Source: Candidatus Saccharimonadales bacterium (GTDB lineage: Bacteria; Patescibacteriota; Saccharimonadia; UBA4664; SCTI01). Taken from it: a stretch of DNA of 64,000 nt. Location: positions 7,087 to 71,086 of the forward strand of contig DATIII010000001.1 in assembly GCA_035479795.1 (NCBI GenBank). The letters run 5' to 3'. The notes under the pieces are model-generated. The model made no database searches and was not told the DNA's origin. It worked only from the letters and a program-made list of their open reading frames with translations. Each line of letters starts with the position of its first letter. Position 1 is the stretch's first letter. The position numbers and the translations under genes are program-made. Of the stretch, positions 1 to 62,002 are shown piece after piece.

Positions 1-184
1 CTGAACCCAAGCCTGCTCAATTGGAGCCGATCCATAGGTCACCAATCCTGGCTTGGATCCGCTGCGCTTCAGTTGGACCAAGCGCACTGCGCTGGAACCA
101 ATATCTACGCCAAAATATTCCACCTCGCTACCAAACATACCCATTTGGTTTATTGTAGCAATACTGCTTACGCTTGCAAAGGCT

Positions 185-4351: not shown

Positions 4352-5410
4352 ATGAAAATTGGAATTGTGGGGCTGCCGAACGTGGGTAAATCCACGCTTT
4401 TTAATGCCCTAACCAAGAACAATGTGCTGGCGGCCAACTACCCCTTTGCGACCATTGAGCCGAATGTGGGAATTGTTCCTGTACCCGATCCGCGACTGGA
4501 AAAGCTGGCGGCGCTATATGATGCCAAAAAGATTATCCCGGCCACGGTCACGTTTGTGGATATTGCCGGCCTGGTGCGCGGGGCCAGTGAAGGCCAAGGC
4601 CTGGGTAACCAATTCCTGGCCAATATCCGCGAGTGTAATGCCATTGTGCAAGTAGTGCGCGACTTTAAAGACGGCGATGTAACTCACGTGGAGGGCAAAA
4701 TCGATCCGCTCGATGATATTCAGACAATTAATACTGAGCTCATTCTGGCCGACATCCAAAGCATTGATAACCGCCTGAATAAAATCCGCAAAGATGCCAG
4801 CCAAAAGACCTTGGCTGCCGAACTAGAGAAGGCCCGGGCAGTGCTGGACAATGGCCAATTGCTGGGCAGTGTGTCCGGTCTTGATACCGAAATACTTCGT
4901 GAATTGCAGCTACTTACGCTTAAGCCATTTCTATTCGTTTTCAACCTTGATGAGCCGGATCTTAGCAATAAGGCCAAGCAGGCCGATTTAGCCAAGCTCG
5001 TCTCCCCCGCCCCCTGCGTCTTTCTATGCGCTAAAGTTGAGGCCGAGTTGATGGAACTGCCAAATGACGAAGCCGCCGAACTGCTAAAAGAGCTCGGCCA
5101 AGAAGAATCGGGCCTCGATCAACTGGCCGCCGCCGCCCAAAAAGCTTTGAGGCTACAAAGCTACCTAACGGCCGGCCCCAAGGAGGTTCGGGCCTGGACT
5201 GTGCCAATCGGCGCCACTGCCCCGCAGGCCGCTGGAGTCATCCATACCGATTTCGAAAAAGGCTTTATCCGCGCCGAAGTGGTTAGTTACGCCGACCTGA
5301 TTGCCGCGGGATCACTTACGAGCGCCCGCGCCGCTGGCAAGGCTCGGTTGGAAGGCAAAGATTACGTGATGAAGCCTGACGACGTAGTCGAATTTCGCTT
5401 TAACGTTTAG
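4352..5410 (+). CDS. ychF: Ribosome-binding ATPase YchF (Obg-family GTPase).
   Basis: [22 protein letters not shown]1 motif and a C-terminal TGS-like region. Start set at the internal ATG at 4352. Confidence 0.9.
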
Positions 5411-42049: not shown

Positions 42050-42139
42050 GGAGAGGTGGCCGAGTGGTCGAAGGCGCACGCTTGGAAAGCGTGTATACGG
42101 GAAACCGTATCCAGGGTTCGAATCCCTGTCTCTCCGCCA
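42050..42139 (+). tRNA. tRNA-Ser (anticodon GGA), CCA encoded.
   Basis: Manual fold: acceptor GGAGAGG/TCTCTCC, anticodon loop TTGGAAA, long variable arm, T-arm GGTTCGAATCC. Confidence 0.85.
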
Positions 42140-45850: not shown

Positions 45851-45953
45851 AACTCCTTTGCCCTATTGTGCCACAGCTGTCCCAAGGCAACAAAAAAGCC
45901 CTTACGGGCGGTAAAGTTTAAGTTTATGACAAGACGGCAAATGGTTTCCACCA

Positions 45954-45977
45954 GGCGGGGGCTTAGAAGCCCCCGCT
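45954..45977. other. GC-rich hairpin GCGGGGGCTTAGAAGCCCCCGC, related to the hairpin in the cassette repeats.
   Basis: Read in the sequence. Confidence 0.4.
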
Positions 45978-46023
45978 CGGCGGATGTCCGATCCCTCCGG
46001 ATCAGTTTGAGAAGCCCTTTAAG

Positions 46024-46094
46024 CGGCGAGAGTGGGATTCGAACCCACGTCTCCGGCTTGTGGCCGGCATCTTGGTCCACTAGACGAGCCCGCC
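46024..46094 (-). tRNA. tRNA-like gene (71 nt), aberrant. Good acceptor and T-arm (GTGGGTTCGAATCCCAC), 3-4 bp D-stem, anticodon arm ambiguous (loop CCACAAG or 5-nt CACAA). Possible pseudogene or unusual tRNA.
   Basis: Manual fold. No U33. Anticodon cannot be assigned confidently. Confidence 0.4.
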
Positions 46095-46095
46095 A

Positions 46096-46169
46096 AGCGG
46101 CCCGAGGGACTCGAACCCTCGATCCTCCCGATTACGTGTCGGGTGCTCTACCAACTGAGCTAGGGCCGC
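46096..46169 (-). tRNA. tRNA-Thr (anticodon CGT as folded); no encoded CCA.
   Basis: Acceptor GCGGCCC/GGGCCGC. D-arm GCTCAGTTGGTAGAGC. Anticodon arm CCCGA-CACGTAA-TCGGG. T-arm GAGGGTTCGAGTCCCTC. Confidence 0.75.
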
Positions 46170-46185
46170 GCTGACTAAAAAGTAG

Positions 46186-46290
46186 CGGCTAGGGCGGGAT
46201 TCGAATCCACTTCGTGAGAAGACCCGCCAGAGTTGGACTGGCCCTCTCCGTCTTACGGGAGCGCTCTCCCACGTGAGCTACAGGCCCCAC
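46186..46290 (-). other. Chimeric tRNA-like sequence. It has a canonical tRNA 5' half (GGGGCCTGTAGCTCACGTGGGAGAGCGC), then a disrupted anticodon region, a GCCAG-TCCAACT-CTGGC hairpin, and a displaced T-arm/3'-end fragment (GGATTCGAATCCCGCC) that resembles the 3' end of the 46024-46094 element.
   Basis: Manual inspection. No consistent cloverleaf could be built. Confidence 0.3.
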
Positions 46291-47063
46291 GAAGTGCATT
46301 ACGTTGCGGCTATGAAGCCGCGAGGACGGATTCGTCGGCCTGTGCTCTTATCGAGCCCGGCGGATCTTGTTGTCCGCGCTACGCCAACGCCTGTCTCATC
46401 CCCGCGGCTTCGCCGCACTACATCAAGGAATCCTGCTATCTTTGGGTACTGCGCCCGCCGGAATTCTCCTGCTCGTCGCCCTCTTCTAAGGAACGACCCT
46501 TTACGCCGTTTTCAGCGGAGAACTTAATCCGACGGGCTTACCTAACGCGAGCAAAGACTCTCCTTCCTCGCATTGGTGGCAGAACGAAGACACGGCCGAA
46601 GCCGGATCTCCTCCTTTCCTTGGTGGTTAAGCTTTGGAGAACGGGAACGATCACCGTAAGTGCTGCTTGGACGGGGCCAAATAGCTCCGCGTCGGCGAGC
46701 GAAGGTAGGTGATCGCGGCCTTAGCCGTTAATCGCGTTCTCGCAGGATAATCCCTTCCTCAGTCAGGACCAGGATCAGCCTCAGTTGACAGGCTCTACCA
46801 CGAAATAGAACCTCGCAACTGAGGCTGAAATGCCATCTTGTCAAAGTAAGTTGCGAACTAGTGCTTATCCAAACTCACAACTTATAGTCGTAAAAACTAC
46901 TCCTTATTGTCAGATATGTCAACAGTTATTGTCTCGGAGGGTAAATTTATCCTTGATTGGTGCCAAGACAAGAAACGAAGATGCCCGCAAGCGAGGCGTA
47001 CAAATAGTACGTCGAGTGCGGACTGCAAGTCGTGACGCCGTATTGCGCCGAGCAGGGATAAAT

Positions 47064-51258: not shown

Positions 51259-52551
51259 TTATTTTTGCAAATGGAGGGCTTTTTTGGCTTCGCCTATTTC
51301 ATCCCAGGGATGCTCGCCGTCAGCGCGCTCAATCGTCTTTTCGTGCCCTTTTCCTAGCAGCATTACCGTATCGCCGGGCTTGGCCAACTTCATGGCCTCA
51401 GCAATAGCCTTTGGGCGGTTTAAGATTAGGAACAGATTCTTATCGCGCTTTTTACCCGACTTTTCGGCCCCACCGGCAATTGCCTCCAGAATCTTCTGCC
51501 CATCCTCTTCACGATCATCTTCTTCGGTGGCAATCACCACATCGGCGTATTTGCCGGCAATCTCACCCTGCGCTGCCCGCTTAGCTGGGTCACGCCGGCC
51601 GGCGGAACCAAATACCACAATCAGTCGACCCTTGGCGCTCTGCTTAGCACCCGGCAGTACCGCTTCAAACCCCGCCGGGGTCGAGGCAAAGTCGACAATC
51701 ACATCAAATTTTTGGCCCTCATCAATCCGCGTCATCCGGCCCTCAACGTTTTTCAGAGCCGCTACCCCCTGCTCAATCTCGTCGTCGGTCAACTCCAGCG
51801 TTAGGCCTACACAGACGGCAGCCAGAGAGTTGTAAACGTTAAAGTCGCCGGGAATATTCACGATCATATTCAGAGCGGAAGAACCGCGCCGCACAATGTA
51901 GCGGCTGCCGGTTGCCGTAGTGGTAGCATCCTCAGCCTTGATGTCACCGTACTTAAGGCCGTAGCTCAACGGATGAGTGACCTCACGAGCAAACAGCGCG
52001 CTGGCTGGGTCGTCGGCATTCACCACCCCCTCCTGCATGCCCCTCGAATTGGCGCCGACCATGGTAAACAGCTTGCGCTTAGCGTCCCGATAGCGTTCGA
52101 AGGTGCCGTGATAGTCCAGATGGTCACCAGTCACATTGGTCATAACCGCAATCTGGTACGGGATGCCCCAAACGCGATTCTGAGCCAGTGCATGACTGCT
52201 AGTTTCAAGCACCAGCCACTCAATGCCATCGGCTTTTAGTTCCTTGATACGCTTTAAGAGTTGGCGAGTCTGCATGGTAGTCATATGCACAAAGCTTTGA
52301 TGCTGCCCCAGGTGCGTGCCGTAACCAACCGTGCTCATGTAACCCACTTTGTAGCCAGAATTTTTGAGCATTTGCCAAATAAAACTGGTGGTCGTGGTTT
52401 TGCCATCGGTACCGGTCACGCCAATCACCTTGAGATCACTTGCCGGGAATCCATAAACCACCTGCCACAACACTGACTCGAGCAGGTGTCCATAAGGCTC
52501 AATGGCCTTAAATAATCGCTGAGGAATTAGAGCTTTAACAATCCGGCGCAT
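51259..52551 (-). CDS. Mur ligase family protein (MurE/MurF-like core; could be a MurT-type amidating-complex ligase).
   Basis: Central Mur ligase domain (GVTGTDGKTTTTSF, DHLDYHGT). C-terminal domain with GKGHE. Confidence 0.75.
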   Translation of the reverse strand: MRRIVKALIPQRLFKAIEPYGHLLESVLWQVVYGFPASDLKVIGVTGTDGKTTTTSFIWQMLKNSGYKVGYMSTVGYGTHLGQHQSFVHMTTMQTRQLLKRIKELKADGIEWLVLETSSHALAQNRVWGIPYQIAVMTNVTGDHLDYHGTFERYRDAKRKLFTMVGANSRGMQEGVVNADDPASALFAREVTHPLSYGLKYGDIKAEDATTTATGSRYIVRRGSSALNMIVNIPGDFNVYNSLAAVCVGLTLELTDDEIEQGVAALKNVEGRMTRIDEGQKFDVIVDFASTPAGFEAVLPGAKQSAKGRLIVVFGSAGRRDPAKRAAQGEIAGKYADVVIATEEDDREEDGQKILEAIAGGAEKSGKKRDKNLFLILNRPKAIAEAMKLAKPGDTVMLLGKGHEKTIERADGEHPWDEIGEAKKALHLQK

Positions 52552-52560
52552 AGAGCAATC

Positions 52561-53586
52561 TTAATAGAAAAGGCGCTTTTTCACACGGTGCGCGTAAGCC
52601 ATGGCTAGCCGCTGGCCAAACTTGGCCCAAATTTGGTAACGGCGCTTGTGAACCGGCAGGTCGTAGGTGCCAATAAACTCCGTAACCTCGGCGTTAAAGC
52701 CAGTTTTGAACCGCGCCAATCCGGCCAATGGATGCTCAGAATTTTCGATGTCCTCAGCCGGCGGCGTGCCATGCAGGTCGTATTCTTTAATGCCCTTAGC
52801 CTTCAGCCACTTCATAATCTCCCATTGCAACAGGTACGGCGCTTGAACATCACTGTGCTCACGGACCGAACCACCATCCTTATACAGAGCCTTTTCACCG
52901 AGGTAGGTAATAAAGGCTCCAGCCAAAATCTGACCTTCATACTTGGCAAAAAACATCTGGCCGCTCCCCGCCTCGCTGTGCAAACGCCAGAAGTCGGCAA
53001 AATATTGGCGGTCGCGCAAATACACCCCGGCGCGATCAACAGTGGCCTGCATTAGAGCATACATTTGGTCGATAGACTCCTCAGTCACACCTGCCGGCTC
53101 GACGCTAACGCCTTTCTTAGCGGCCAGACGAACGTTATAACGCGTCTTTTGCTTGAATCCGCTTATGATCTCATCTTCGCTGGGCTCGAGGCTGACAATG
53201 ACTGTGGAGACGTTGTACTGGATATCACGTACCTTCTCGAAGCCAAAAGCGTTAAGCTCGGCCGGCCCAATCTGGCCTTTGGCAATCTCGGGTTCAATCT
53301 TCACCATAAACGGCGGCGGATATGGCAGCTGCTTTGATAGATACTCCAGGCCCTCCTTCACCGTCACGCCCGGACCTTTACAGATATACCAAATCTCACC
53401 CAGCAATGGCACCTCGCGGCTGAGCACCAGCACGGCCACCTCACCGAGCATGAAGTAGAGCGGTTCCCAGCCATGCAGCGCCTTGGTTTCGGCAAAGGCC
53501 TTGGATTGCAGAACGTTGCCGCCATCTGGGTTAGCCGCCACCAGTTTATCCCAGCCGGCAATTTCTTCGGGTGTAGCCGGCCTCAT
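52561..53586 (-). CDS. FemAB-family peptidoglycan aminoacyltransferase (paralog 1).
   Basis: FemABX/GNAT-like architecture. Tandem with a second copy. Confidence 0.75.
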   Translation of the reverse strand: MRPATPEEIAGWDKLVAANPDGGNVLQSKAFAETKALHGWEPLYFMLGEVAVLVLSREVPLLGEIWYICKGPGVTVKEGLEYLSKQLPYPPPFMVKIEPEIAKGQIGPAELNAFGFEKVRDIQYNVSTVIVSLEPSEDEIISGFKQKTRYNVRLAAKKGVSVEPAGVTEESIDQMYALMQATVDRAGVYLRDRQYFADFWRLHSEAGSGQMFFAKYEGQILAGAFITYLGEKALYKDGGSVREHSDVQAPYLLQWEIMKWLKAKGIKEYDLHGTPPAEDIENSEHPLAGLARFKTGFNAEVTEFIGTYDLPVHKRRYQIWAKFGQRLAMAYAHRVKKRLFY

Positions 53587-54575
53587 TTACGGCCTCCTAT
53601 AATCTTGCGACCAATCGGCTTTAGTATTGGGAACAGCTTTGACCACACGGCGTAGGCAGTTTTATCAATCGGCGCGTGATAGGTGCCGACCCAATCTGTC
53701 TCATCCGGGCCAAAGCCCTCTTTAAACTGGCTCACACCTTCGTTCAGTCGGCCATTAAAGTCATACAGCTTCAGGCCAGCCGCCTTCGCATCGCGAATAG
53801 CCTGCATCTTTAAGGCATAATTTGCTTTATTATCCTGGCCCTTCTCGGTCACGCCTCCATACAGCTCAAAGGCCACCGTGCCTGCGGTAGCCACCCATAA
53901 AACCGCCTCCGGCTGGCCATCAATTTCGGCGTAATAAATATGATTGCTATCCCCCAGCTGGATTGAGAGCTCATCATAGTAATCCTTGGCATGAATGCTA
54001 AACCCAGCCCGCTTGGCCGTCTGGCTGTAAATCCGCCCGAAGCGCCCCAGATGCTCACGCTGGTGGCGGCATTCGACAACCTTTACTCCCTCGCGCTCAG
54101 CTTTACGGATATACTGGCGGTGCTTGCGGCTCATTTTTTCCAGCATCTCATCCTCGCTCTGGCTGAGATCAATAGTGAAGGTCTCGGGCAATAATACGTG
54201 GTCTTCCGTTTTCTCCCAGCGGCTGCCAAAGGCAAACTCGCGCCAAGCCGGCTCGAGCTTAAGGTACAGCGCCCGGTGACCTTTAGCTGCCTGCCTCAAA
54301 TGATCAATAAAGGCATGAGCAGCCGCATCTACCGGATCAATCACCGGACCGCGCGGCACATAGGCCACCATTTTGCCCAGCCGCGGGATGGGCCACAGTA
54401 ACATCTGGGCCGCAGCCTTAATCTGGCCGTCTTCCACCCACGCCAGCCGCAGCGGCGTCCAGCCATTGAGCCGTTTAACTTCACCCCAGCCCCACAGCTG
54501 CAATGGGTGCCCAAATGGATGGCCGGCCACCCAATCGTCCCACTGAGCGCGGTTGGTTATTTCCTCGAGTTGCAT
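53583..54575 (-). CDS. FemAB-family peptidoglycan aminoacyltransferase (paralog 2).
   Basis: Homologous to 52561-53586. 4-nt overlap. Confidence 0.75.
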   Translation of the reverse strand: MQLEEITNRAQWDDWVAGHPFGHPLQLWGWGEVKRLNGWTPLRLAWVEDGQIKAAAQMLLWPIPRLGKMVAYVPRGPVIDPVDAAAHAFIDHLRQAAKGHRALYLKLEPAWREFAFGSRWEKTEDHVLLPETFTIDLSQSEDEMLEKMSRKHRQYIRKAEREGVKVVECRHQREHLGRFGRIYSQTAKRAGFSIHAKDYYDELSIQLGDSNHIYYAEIDGQPEAVLWVATAGTVAFELYGGVTEKGQDNKANYALKMQAIRDAKAAGLKLYDFNGRLNEGVSQFKEGFGPDETDWVGTYHAPIDKTAYAVWSKLFPILKPIGRKIIGGRK

Positions 54576-60939: not shown

Positions 60940-61030
<91 letters not shown>

Positions 61031-61101
61031 GCGTCCGGATTATTCTATCTTAATCCAATCCGTAAAGAAAATTGCCATAAGCGGAATGGGAATGTCATAA
61101 T

Positions 61102-61638
61102 GTGACCAAAGAGGTGCGCATGGAACTGCAAGAAGGCCAGCCAGTAGAAGTGGCCGACAATGGAACTGAAGTAATCCAGCCTGAACACAGCTATTCATGG
61201 CAAGCTTCCGAGTTTATTTTCCATCAGAAAACGAACAGTTGGTATGTCACACTTTGGCTGGTGACCGCGGCAATCTGCCTGGTTCTCGGCTTGCTCGCAC
61301 AGTGGCTGGCTGTAGCCATGGTGGTAGTGATGGCGCTAGCGGTAGTTGTTTACTCGCGCAAAGAGCCACGTACTCTCGGGTATGCGGTGGACGATCATGG
61401 CGTTAGCGTCGAGGGCAAGGTGACTGCTTATAAACTATTCCGCTCATACAGTATTCACCAAGATCTCTCCTGGCAGACCATTGATCTTGAGCCGACCCAA
61501 CGTTTTGTCCCCCGCCTGACCTTGCTTTGTGAGAATGAGAATATTGAGCAGATTGCATCCATTTTGGCCCAGCACCTACCACGCGTTCAGCGTAGTCCTG
61601 ACTTAGTCGAACGGCTGACACGCTACCTAAAATTCTAG
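61102..61638 (+). CDS. Hypothetical membrane protein (two TM helices, ~178 aa); start uncertain (GTG at 61102 or ATG at 61120).
   Basis: ORF plus hydrophobic segment (WYVTLWLVTAAICLVLGLLAQWLAVAMVVVMALAVVVY). Confidence 0.45.
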   Translation: MTKEVRMELQEGQPVEVADNGTEVIQPEHSYSWQASEFIFHQKTNSWYVTLWLVTAAICLVLGLLAQWLAVAMVVVMALAVVVYSRKEPRTLGYAVDDHGVSVEGKVTAYKLFRSYSIHQDLSWQTIDLEPTQRFVPRLTLLCENENIEQIASILAQHLPRVQRSPDLVERLTRYLKF

Positions 61639-61690
61639 ATTTTAACCTGATAATGTGCTAATTTAGCGAGGTTCTTTGAGAACCAATTGT

Positions 61691-61767
61691 GCGCTCGTAG
61701 CTCAGCTGGATAGAGCATCAGCTTGCGGTGCTGGAGGTCGGGGGTTCGAATCCCTCCGAGCGCGCCA
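61691..61767 (+). tRNA. tRNA-Arg (anticodon GCG as read), CCA encoded.
   Basis: Acceptor GCGCTCG/CGAGCGC. D-arm GCTCAGCTGGATAGAGC. Anticodon arm TCAGC-TTGCGGT-GCTGG. T-arm GGGGGTTCGAATCCCTC. Confidence 0.8.
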
Positions 61768-61800
61768 TGTCATTATTGCCCGCAAATTGCGGGCTCTTTA

Positions 61801-61889
<89 letters not shown>

Positions 61890-61909
61890 AATGATAAAAT
61901 CCCAATCAC

Positions 61910-62002
61910 GGAGAGGTACCCAAGTGGCTGAAGGGGCTGGTTTGCTAAACCGGTAGGGGGGCGAAAGTTCCCGCGAGGGTTCGAATCCCTCCCTCTCCGC
62001 CA
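61910..62002 (+). tRNA. tRNA-Ser (anticodon GCT), CCA encoded.
   Basis: Acceptor GGAGAGG/CCTCTCC. Anticodon arm CTGGT-TTGCTAA-ACCGG. Long variable arm. Confidence 0.85.

Follow-up and report, generated by a model that had tools for sequence, protein, structure and literature searches.

Here we analyzed three transfer RNA (tRNA)-like elements on the minus strand (46024–46288) of a 64,000-nt stretch of DNA, hereafter the window, from a Candidatus Saccharimonadales bacterium (assembly GCA_035479795.1, contig DATIII010000001.1, positions 7,087 to 71,086 of the forward strand). The elements lie in the 3′ third of a single predicted transcription unit on the minus strand (approximately 46922–45892), and with moderate confidence we consider them to be tRNA-derived, non-decoding modules of an approximately 1-kb structured RNA located upstream of the gene pgi in a clade of Saccharimonadales. 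More tentatively, this RNA could represent a new class, namely a giant (0.5–1.1 kb) structured RNA of this clade with a covarying closing helix, a hypervariable and strongly folded interior, and recurrent tRNA mimics whose anticodon loops are free to decay. Such a class would be the chromosomal counterpart, in the candidate phyla radiation (CPR), of the phage-borne, tRNA-carrying GOLLD RNA. In the full-text literature we searched, no such RNA has been described for Saccharibacteria or other CPR/Patescibacteria.

The three elements were recovered on the minus strand by both ARAGORN and the Rfam tRNA model, in the place where a first-pass annotation of the window had put them. ARAGORN called 'Cys(aca)' at 46023–46094 (hereafter element 1), Thr(cgt) at 46096–46169 (the Thr element) and 'tRNA-???' with a 2-nt anticodon at 46218–46288 (element 3). 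With the Rfam model (RF00005, gathering score of 29 bits), the Thr element reached 60.1 bits (E = 3.3e-12) and element 1 reached 42.9 bits (E = 1.8e-7), both passing the gathering score, which element 3 failed at 22.6 bits (E = 0.07). The check with ARAGORN and Infernal did not turn up a clean, high-scoring set of standard tRNAs: element 3 remained below the threshold and the anticodon loop of element 1 comprises 5 nt. None of the three elements combines a 7-nt anticodon loop, U33 and a position-37 purine, and none encodes the 3′ CCA. By comparison, all five ordinary tRNA genes of the window (four Ser, one Arg) have U33 and encode CCA. The outer two elements cannot serve as standard decoders. 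In the Thr element and element 1 taken together, 41 of the 42 stem pairs are standard (two of them G·U) with a single mismatch, all elbow nucleotides are intact, and the damage is restricted to the anticodon loop.

The unit that harbors these elements belongs to a family of 12, all from metagenome-assembled sequence; eleven relatives of the window carry such a unit upstream of pgi. A promoter of the type TTGAC(A/T/G)-17 nt-TAnnnT is found in all 12 members and lies in a region that is conserved by alignment; in the window (46894–46922, minus strand) it consists of a −35 box TTGACA (46922–46917), a 17-nt spacer and a −10 box TAGTTT (46899–46894). It is followed by a 5′-terminal hairpin (46847–46884, minus strand; core pairs 46881–46872 with 46859–46850), for which RNAalifold, applied to 11 members, gave 10 pairs, 6 of them with compensatory changes. 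At one position of this hairpin, 8 of the 11 sequences have a U·G pair, which assigns the unit to the strand of groEL and pgi. The unit ends in an intrinsic terminator read from the sequence (45892–45909, minus strand), GCCC-GUAA-GGGC followed by UUUUUU, and an equivalent terminator is present in the units of all relatives.

Both ends of the unit are tied together by a long-range closing helix. Its 5′ strand (UGACAAGAUGGCA, 46831–46843, minus strand) and its 3′ strand (UGCCGUCUUGUCA, 45927–45939, minus strand) were found by an independent repeat search as 13-nt segments that are 92% complementary, include one U·G pair and lie 891 nt apart. RNAduplex supported the helix in 8 of 9 loci. In the alignment it extends over 18 pairs with 90% of the cells paired, compared with 33–47% in slid controls, and compensatory changes affect 10 of the 18 pairs. 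Of 500 shuffles, none was as good. We also considered terminal inverted repeats of a miniature inverted-repeat transposable element or an invertible segment as the origin of the helix. This is less likely given the fixed syntenic site, the bracketing by promoter and terminator, and the presence of U·G/G·U pairs, which were seen in the 5′ hairpin as well as in the closing helix.

The interior of the unit changes rapidly and is nearly unalignable between genera, yet it is heavily paired. The 994-nt RNA of the window has a folding energy of −470.6 kcal/mol compared with −376 ± 7.5 kcal/mol for dinucleotide shuffles (z = −12.5). The six relatives tested gave z values of −5.6 to −13.4, and four 1-kb coding controls from the window gave +1.2 to −1.8. 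For the interior 3′ domain of three relatives that are closer to one another (loci L014, L023 and L042), 110 pairs were predicted, 16 of them with compensatory changes. Immediately inside the closing helix, the minimum-energy fold contains a first long hairpin (46775–46828, minus strand; 23-nt arms, 87% complementary), and an analogous long hairpin is found at the same place in the units of relatives. Directly upstream of the closing helix's 3′ strand, the repeat search revealed a G+C-rich hairpin (45947–45984, minus strand), which has equivalents in L014, L023, L042, L004 and L043. The same search identified a 13-bp stalk (46411–46399 with 46326–46314, minus strand) around a 72-nt multibranch module with the motif GCGCGGACAAC, of which L023 and L042 contain an exact 11-nt match. 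This 72-nt module is tRNA-sized and gave no match to the Rfam tRNA model at E ≤ 10. Its hairpin loop, CAACAAG, is similar to CCACAAG, the aberrant loop of element 1.

The unit as a whole gave no Rfam match at E ≤ 10 in the window region or at E ≤ 1 in nine relatives. Transfer-messenger RNA (tmRNA), RNase P RNA, signal recognition particle (SRP) RNA and 6S RNA were rejected as identities of the unit, as neither Rfam nor ARAGORN matched them and their motifs are absent. A pattern search of metagenomes returned one true member (L023) and six chance matches. The corresponding scan of viral contigs returned 14 chance matches and no family member. Besides that, several units of relatives contain small open reading frames (ORFs; 47–109 amino acids) with good ribosome-binding sites (L014 2319–2495, L023 5249–5491, L042 ~1730–1960, L016 ~2365–2694, L043 ~1714–1857). 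In L014, L016 and L023, the third-codon-position G+C content of these ORFs is 0.85–0.96 (0.93–0.96 for L014 and L023) in genomes of ~50–55% G+C. L014, L023 and L042 have in common an ORF of 58–80 amino acids with a conserved peptide (...ALEHER..ATNI...AG.VAGDGGG...RGAPEV.PLT); the peptides matched neither a Pfam family nor a plasmid sequence. The idea that the unit exists to encode a small conserved protein was discarded, as the unit of the window has no such ORF.

Across the family, tRNA modules occur in 5 of the 12 units (the window and four relatives), at 0.72–0.78 of the unit length. Their anticodon arms differ widely. The modules of L013 (Gly-GCC) and L044 (Thr-UGU) have canonical loops, that of L041 has a 4-bp anticodon stem and the loop AAAACAC with A33, and that of L043 is Gly-like and carries ~10 inserted nucleotides in its anticodon arm, for which ARAGORN reports a '4-nt anticodon'. 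A canonical anticodon loop is thereby found in only two of the seven embedded modules family-wide, and CCA is encoded in none of the four modules of relatives. At the same time, these four and the Thr element all start with GCGG and end with CCGC plus U or A, and the acceptor, D and T stems of the recurrent modules are 98.8% paired, with five covarying pairs. L041 and L044 were compared for the rate of change: their modules are 64% identical and differ in the anticodon loop within conserved flanks, the encoded pgi proteins are 83% identical, and orthologues of tRNA-Ser(GGA) in the same genomes are 87–100% identical. The slow evolution between orthologues expected of a decoding tRNA is therefore not seen in the L041 and L044 modules. 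Taken together, the fast change, the preserved tRNA shape and the unpreserved anticodon fit selection on shape rather than on decoding.

The Thr element (46096–46169, minus strand) represents the module type common to relatives, as judged from its alignment with the modules of L013, L041, L043 and L044. Its perfect cloverleaf is also its own minimum-energy fold. The first-pass annotation had folded this middle element as tRNA-Thr(CGU) with an A at position 33, and the loop CACGUAA agrees with this. In addition, the element has a 6-nt variable loop and U73, and it lacks an encoded CCA. A blastn comparison with phage and plasmid sequences produced only generic tRNA matches to this element.

For element 1 (46024–46094, minus strand), the best alignment shows a perfect 5-bp anticodon stem (CCGGC/GCCGG) around the 5-nt loop CACAA, which corresponds to a 2-nt loop deletion in the Infernal alignment; an alternative fold has C33. 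The earlier view that this element possesses no standard anticodon and no U33 is thereby supported. Its acceptor and T arms had both been described as perfect; the acceptor stem is not, as it contains G5·U68 and a C7×U66 mismatch. The D and T arms and the elbow nucleotides are intact, position 73 is a G, and CCA is not encoded. With −27.5 kcal/mol, the cloverleaf is nearly isoenergetic with the minimum-energy fold (−28.1 kcal/mol). No homologue of element 1 was found in other units of the family, and exact-pattern scans of viral contigs gave no match.

Element 3 is a degenerate tRNA-Ala-like cloverleaf (46287–46219) on a 13-nt stalk (46300–46288 with 46216–46204), the whole structure spanning 46204–46300 on the minus strand. 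It had previously been described as a tRNA 5′ half whose 3′ portion was replaced. The element, however, has its own T arm (GCCAG-UCCAACU-CUGGC, with the non-canonical T loop UCCAACU) and its own acceptor 3′ strand (CGGGUCU), and we consequently regard it as a complete but degenerate cloverleaf. Its 5′ half is tRNA-Ala-like, the acceptor stem includes three G·U pairs, among them G3·U70, and the anticodon arm forms either a 4-bp stem around 8 nt or a 5-nt loop with a bulge. The 13-nt inverted repeat is 92% complementary, brackets the element exactly, is present in minimum-energy folds, and prolongs the acceptor stem, so that element 3 has no free ends. What had been taken for a hairpin 3′ of the element is better understood as the 3′ strand of this stalk.

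Adjacent to it, a segment at 46184–46213 (minus strand) is a partial copy of the T arm and acceptor 3′ strand of an element-1-type tRNA. It is identical at 25 of 30 positions to the 3′ end of element 1 (46022–46051), with the repeats 162 bp apart, and the resemblance already remarked upon at first pass thus reflects a real partial duplication. The 5′ part of this copy is also the 3′ strand of the element 3 stalk, and the copy appears to have been recruited into it. We further examined whether element 3 and the fragment could form a single type-II, intron-containing or permuted tRNA; this was rejected, since the acceptor strand CCUAGCC of the fragment cannot pair with GGGGCCU. A homologue of element 3 was not found in other units, and exact-pattern scans of viral contigs gave only two unrelated phage tRNA-like sequences. 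The tRNA-Ala-like 5′ half of element 3 (GTAGCTCACGTGGGAGAGCGC) recurs beside a normal tRNA in the phage contigs L026 (3560–3660, plus strand) and L025 (~1–90, minus strand). In both, it is followed by an aberrant, enlarged anticodon region, and ARAGORN makes no tRNA call.

Based on these features, a likely mode of action can be outlined. The RNA would be transcribed from its own sigma-70-type promoter and would start with a protective 5′ hairpin. A long-range helix connects the 5′ and 3′ regions and encloses a fast-changing yet heavily paired interior, and an intrinsic terminator closes the unit. In the window, two further tRNA-derived modules, element 1 and the stalked element 3, have been added to the family-typical Thr(CGU) module with A33. 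The acceptor/T-arm minihelix and the D/T elbow may be kept as recognition features for RNase P, RNase Z, the CCA-adding enzyme or other tRNA-binding factors. The free-standing Thr element and element 1 would in that case be handles for processing or recognition, through which the large RNA is cut or marked; the anticodon loop would be irrelevant to this role and drift. We favor this role for the two elements because the parts recognized by enzymes are conserved and the anticodon loop is free to change. Element 3, whose ends are not free, would have a structural role only, as a four-way junction. The processing of the modules and their biological role are here inferred from these conserved features.

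Several observations weigh against this interpretation. Seven of the 12 units have no tRNA module, and hence the modules are not essential to the family. The modules of L013 and L044 look fully functional apart from the missing CCA and might be ordinary tRNA genes that happen to lie in this transcript. For elements 1 and 3 there are no orthologues, the nearest relative being 74% identical at pgi, and the cloverleaf of element 3, which is below the Rfam threshold, lies 5.6 kcal/mol above the minimum-energy fold. On the side of the unit, the alignment behind the closing-helix values was trimmed by hand, and transcription is deduced from the conserved promoter and terminator. Finally, the interior ORFs with good ribosome-binding sites in relatives suggest that the unit may be, or may also be, an mRNA, and it could have a dual function.

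Some of these points are shared by the main rival explanation, which we consider unlikely but by no means negligible: the elements could be decaying tRNA pseudogenes and recombination debris in a fast-evolving intergenic transcript, derived from redundant ordinary tRNA genes and without a function of their own. Decay would have proceeded via the U33A change, the 2-nt loop deletion, the partial duplication and a chimeric element 3. The rapid turnover of the unit interior and the units lacking a module are consistent with this, as are the low Rfam score and non-canonical T loop of element 3 and the uncompensated T-stem changes in the partial 3′-end copy. Moreover, according to the wobble rules a CGU Thr isoacceptor is dispensable if a UGU isoacceptor exists. 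However, decay does not readily explain why only the anticodon loop is damaged in the Thr element and element 1, with 41 of 42 stem pairs standard and the elbow intact, or why the stems of the family are kept by compensatory changes at 64–73% identity. In addition, the 13-nt stalk brackets element 3 so precisely that it looks built rather than decayed.

A much less probable explanation is that the elements are dedicated non-ribosomal amino-acid carriers, which would be cut out, CCA-tailed and charged (with Ala via G3·U70, with Thr via the CGU anticodon) and would feed the two FemAB transferases encoded 6–8 kb upstream, comparable to the non-proteinogenic tRNA-Gly of Staphylococcus. The two FemAB paralogues and a Mur ligase indeed lie in conserved upstream synteny, acceptor and T arms are intact, and element 3 has G3·U70. 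Likewise, the Thr element keeps the anticodon determinants of threonyl-tRNA synthetase, and A33 would disfavor ribosomal use. Yet the FemAB link is not specific, because the same synteny is found in L011, whose unit has no tRNA module. Furthermore, CCA is not encoded, the ends of element 3 are buried in the stalk and thus not available for aminoacylation, and the 'identities' of the modules shift between orthologous units (Thr-UGU in L044, the loop AAAACAC in L041). The tRNA genes specialized for non-ribosomal use in Staphylococcus (FemXAB) share with the window the FemAB-family genes in the neighborhood. They differ in being free-standing and in having normal 7-nt anticodon loops with U33, and the FemAB link observed here is generic synteny.

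Even less support remains for att-site remnants, as proposed in the first-pass annotation, in which a mobile element would have integrated into a tRNA gene and later left it, the traces being disruption of the gene and duplication of its 3′ end. tRNA 3′ ends are classic integration sites, and as at such sites there is a 30-nt direct repeat of a tRNA 3′ end (46184–46213 and 46022–46051), 83% identical. But the repeats are only 162 bp apart and enclose the Thr element alone, unlike the att sites of integrative elements, and there is no island here. In the gene list, the 10 kb to either side contain no integrase, excisionase, cargo or other mobile-element gene, and the flanking housekeeping genes are syntenic in relatives. 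Similarity to phages and plasmids is limited to generic tRNA matches, and the recurrent modules in the units of relatives would be left unexplained. The least probable reading, functional but unusual decoders such as frameshift or recoding tRNAs with an altered anticodon loop, draws on the intact cloverleaf and elbow of the Thr element and element 1 and on the existence of suppressor tRNAs with altered loop size (mostly 8-nt loops), but a loop of 5 nt is unable to display an anticodon with a U-turn, CCA is not encoded, unlike in every ordinary tRNA gene seen in the clade, orthologous modules evolve too fast for decoding, and element 3 has no free ends. The alternative raised at first pass, that these are genuinely unusual tRNAs, comes nearer, in the sense of tRNA-shaped RNA modules and not of translation adaptors.

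As non-decoding modules of a structured RNA, the elements can be compared with several known systems. Their host RNA fits the pattern of large size and extensive conserved secondary structure that characterizes GOLLD, ROOL and OLE (994 nt, z = −12.5, covariation), and its closest analogue, judged by comparison, is GOLLD RNA with embedded tRNAs; it is similar in kind and not a member of the GOLLD, ROOL or OLE families, whose covariance models gave no match (window region searched at E ≤ 10, nine relatives at E ≤ 1). Like GOLLD, the unit is a bacterial RNA of large size (800 nt or more) that is heavily structured and has conserved and variable parts. Some GOLLD RNAs carry tRNAs within an internal linker region or next to the RNA (PMC12286853, PMC12990946), and GOLLD and ROOL form nanocages, whereas OLE forms homodimers (PMC12286853). 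Unlike all three, the unit described here is chromosomal and located beside housekeeping genes rather than in a prophage or tRNA array. It further differs from GOLLD in its occurrence in Saccharimonadales, in its conserved parts, which are the two ends and the closing helix rather than a 3′ domain, and in its embedded tRNAs, which lack CCA and often have defective anticodon loops.

A tRNA-shaped, non-decoding element inside a longer transcript is also known from MALAT1/mascRNA, from Arabidopsis GUT15 (PMC6152437) and from mitochondrial 'tRNA punctuation'. In these cases RNase P and RNase Z recognize the element to define RNA ends, and the anticodon loop is unconstrained. These systems are eukaryotic or organellar; for the unit, a corresponding cleavage is only inferred, and its modules are located upstream of the 3′ strand that pairs back to the 5′ region. 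Element 3, in turn, resembles YrlA, a bacterial Y-RNA-like RNA with a tRNA-like fold, whose 'acceptor' helix runs into a longer stem and which has neither a free 3′ end nor a decoding function. In contrast to YrlA, the host RNA is much larger and has no Rfam match, and the gene list contains no Rsr/Ro or RtcB genes near the unit.

The genomic neighborhood of the unit consists of housekeeping genes. These are arranged in the order isoleucyl-tRNA synthetase, TsaD, two FemAB, Mur ligase, DDAH/ADI-like, groES, groEL, a 1.2-kb gap, pgi and MacB/ABC, with DnaG and RpoD farther along. The order FemAB, Mur ligase, groES, groEL, unit, pgi, MacB/ABC is preserved in relatives, which have a non-coding gap of 0.75–1.2 kb upstream of pgi, usually directly after groEL. 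The flanking pgi gene occurs on a contig of a Candidatus Saccharimonadales metagenome-assembled genome (GCA_964594805.1), and all relatives at pgi are Saccharimonadales or Saccharimonadia. The closest pgi homologue among 5.8 billion proteins is 74% identical, and hence the databases contain no close relatives. In the genome-scan loci L002–L009 (eight Saccharimonadales; a ninth, archaeal locus was left out), no tRNA was found upstream of pgi, and intergenic similarity to the window consisted of T-arm matches only. The unit terminator is followed by a promoter and ribosome-binding site of pgi. This gene has its own conserved extended −10 promoter (TGTGGCACAATAG, 45855–45875, minus strand) directly after the terminator, with equivalents in relatives, so that its expression is not simply a matter of read-through from the RNA unit. 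The two adjacent FemAB genes and the Mur ligase (51259–54575, minus strand) remain syntenic with groESL and the RNA unit in both L011 and L013. This suggests that, in these Saccharimonadales, the peptidoglycan peptide is branched in a tRNA-dependent manner.

Further observations concern other RNA elements of the window and its relatives. The tRNA-Arg gene of the window (61691–61767, plus strand) has the anticodon GCG; the usual anticodon of this bacterial tRNA-Arg is ACG. Three tRNA-Ser genes (CGA, UGA, GCU) surround it within 60941–62002, a fourth (GGA) is located at 42050–42139, and all of these genes encode CCA, including the nearby Ser genes. An odd tRNA-like element was found just upstream of tRNA-Ser(GGA) in L004 (9475–9546) and L023 (9450–9519), and none at the tRNA-Ser(GGA) of the window. 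ARAGORN calls the L004 element 'Arg(gcg)' with the anticodon at position 31, and Rfam gives only a partial tmRNA-clan match below the threshold for both. In L015, a contig of a relative (4820–4874, minus strand), a hammerhead type III ribozyme match stays below the threshold (38.5 bits compared with a gathering score of 48.5, E = 2.9e-5).

Large structured RNAs without an assigned function are rare, and the nanocages of GOLLD and ROOL and the homodimers of OLE have made them a subject of intense current study. If our interpretation is correct, the unit upstream of pgi would add a second, independent case of a giant RNA with built-in tRNAs. At the same time, it would represent a natural experiment on what remains of a tRNA once decoding is not required: the acceptor, the T arm and the elbow persist, and the anticodon loop disappears. 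For genome annotation, it would follow that assessments of the decoding capacity of reduced genomes should not list these elements among the tRNA-Cys, tRNA-Thr or 'undetermined' genes. In these host-dependent epibionts, tRNA mimicry may serve to recruit tRNA-binding enzymes and factors.

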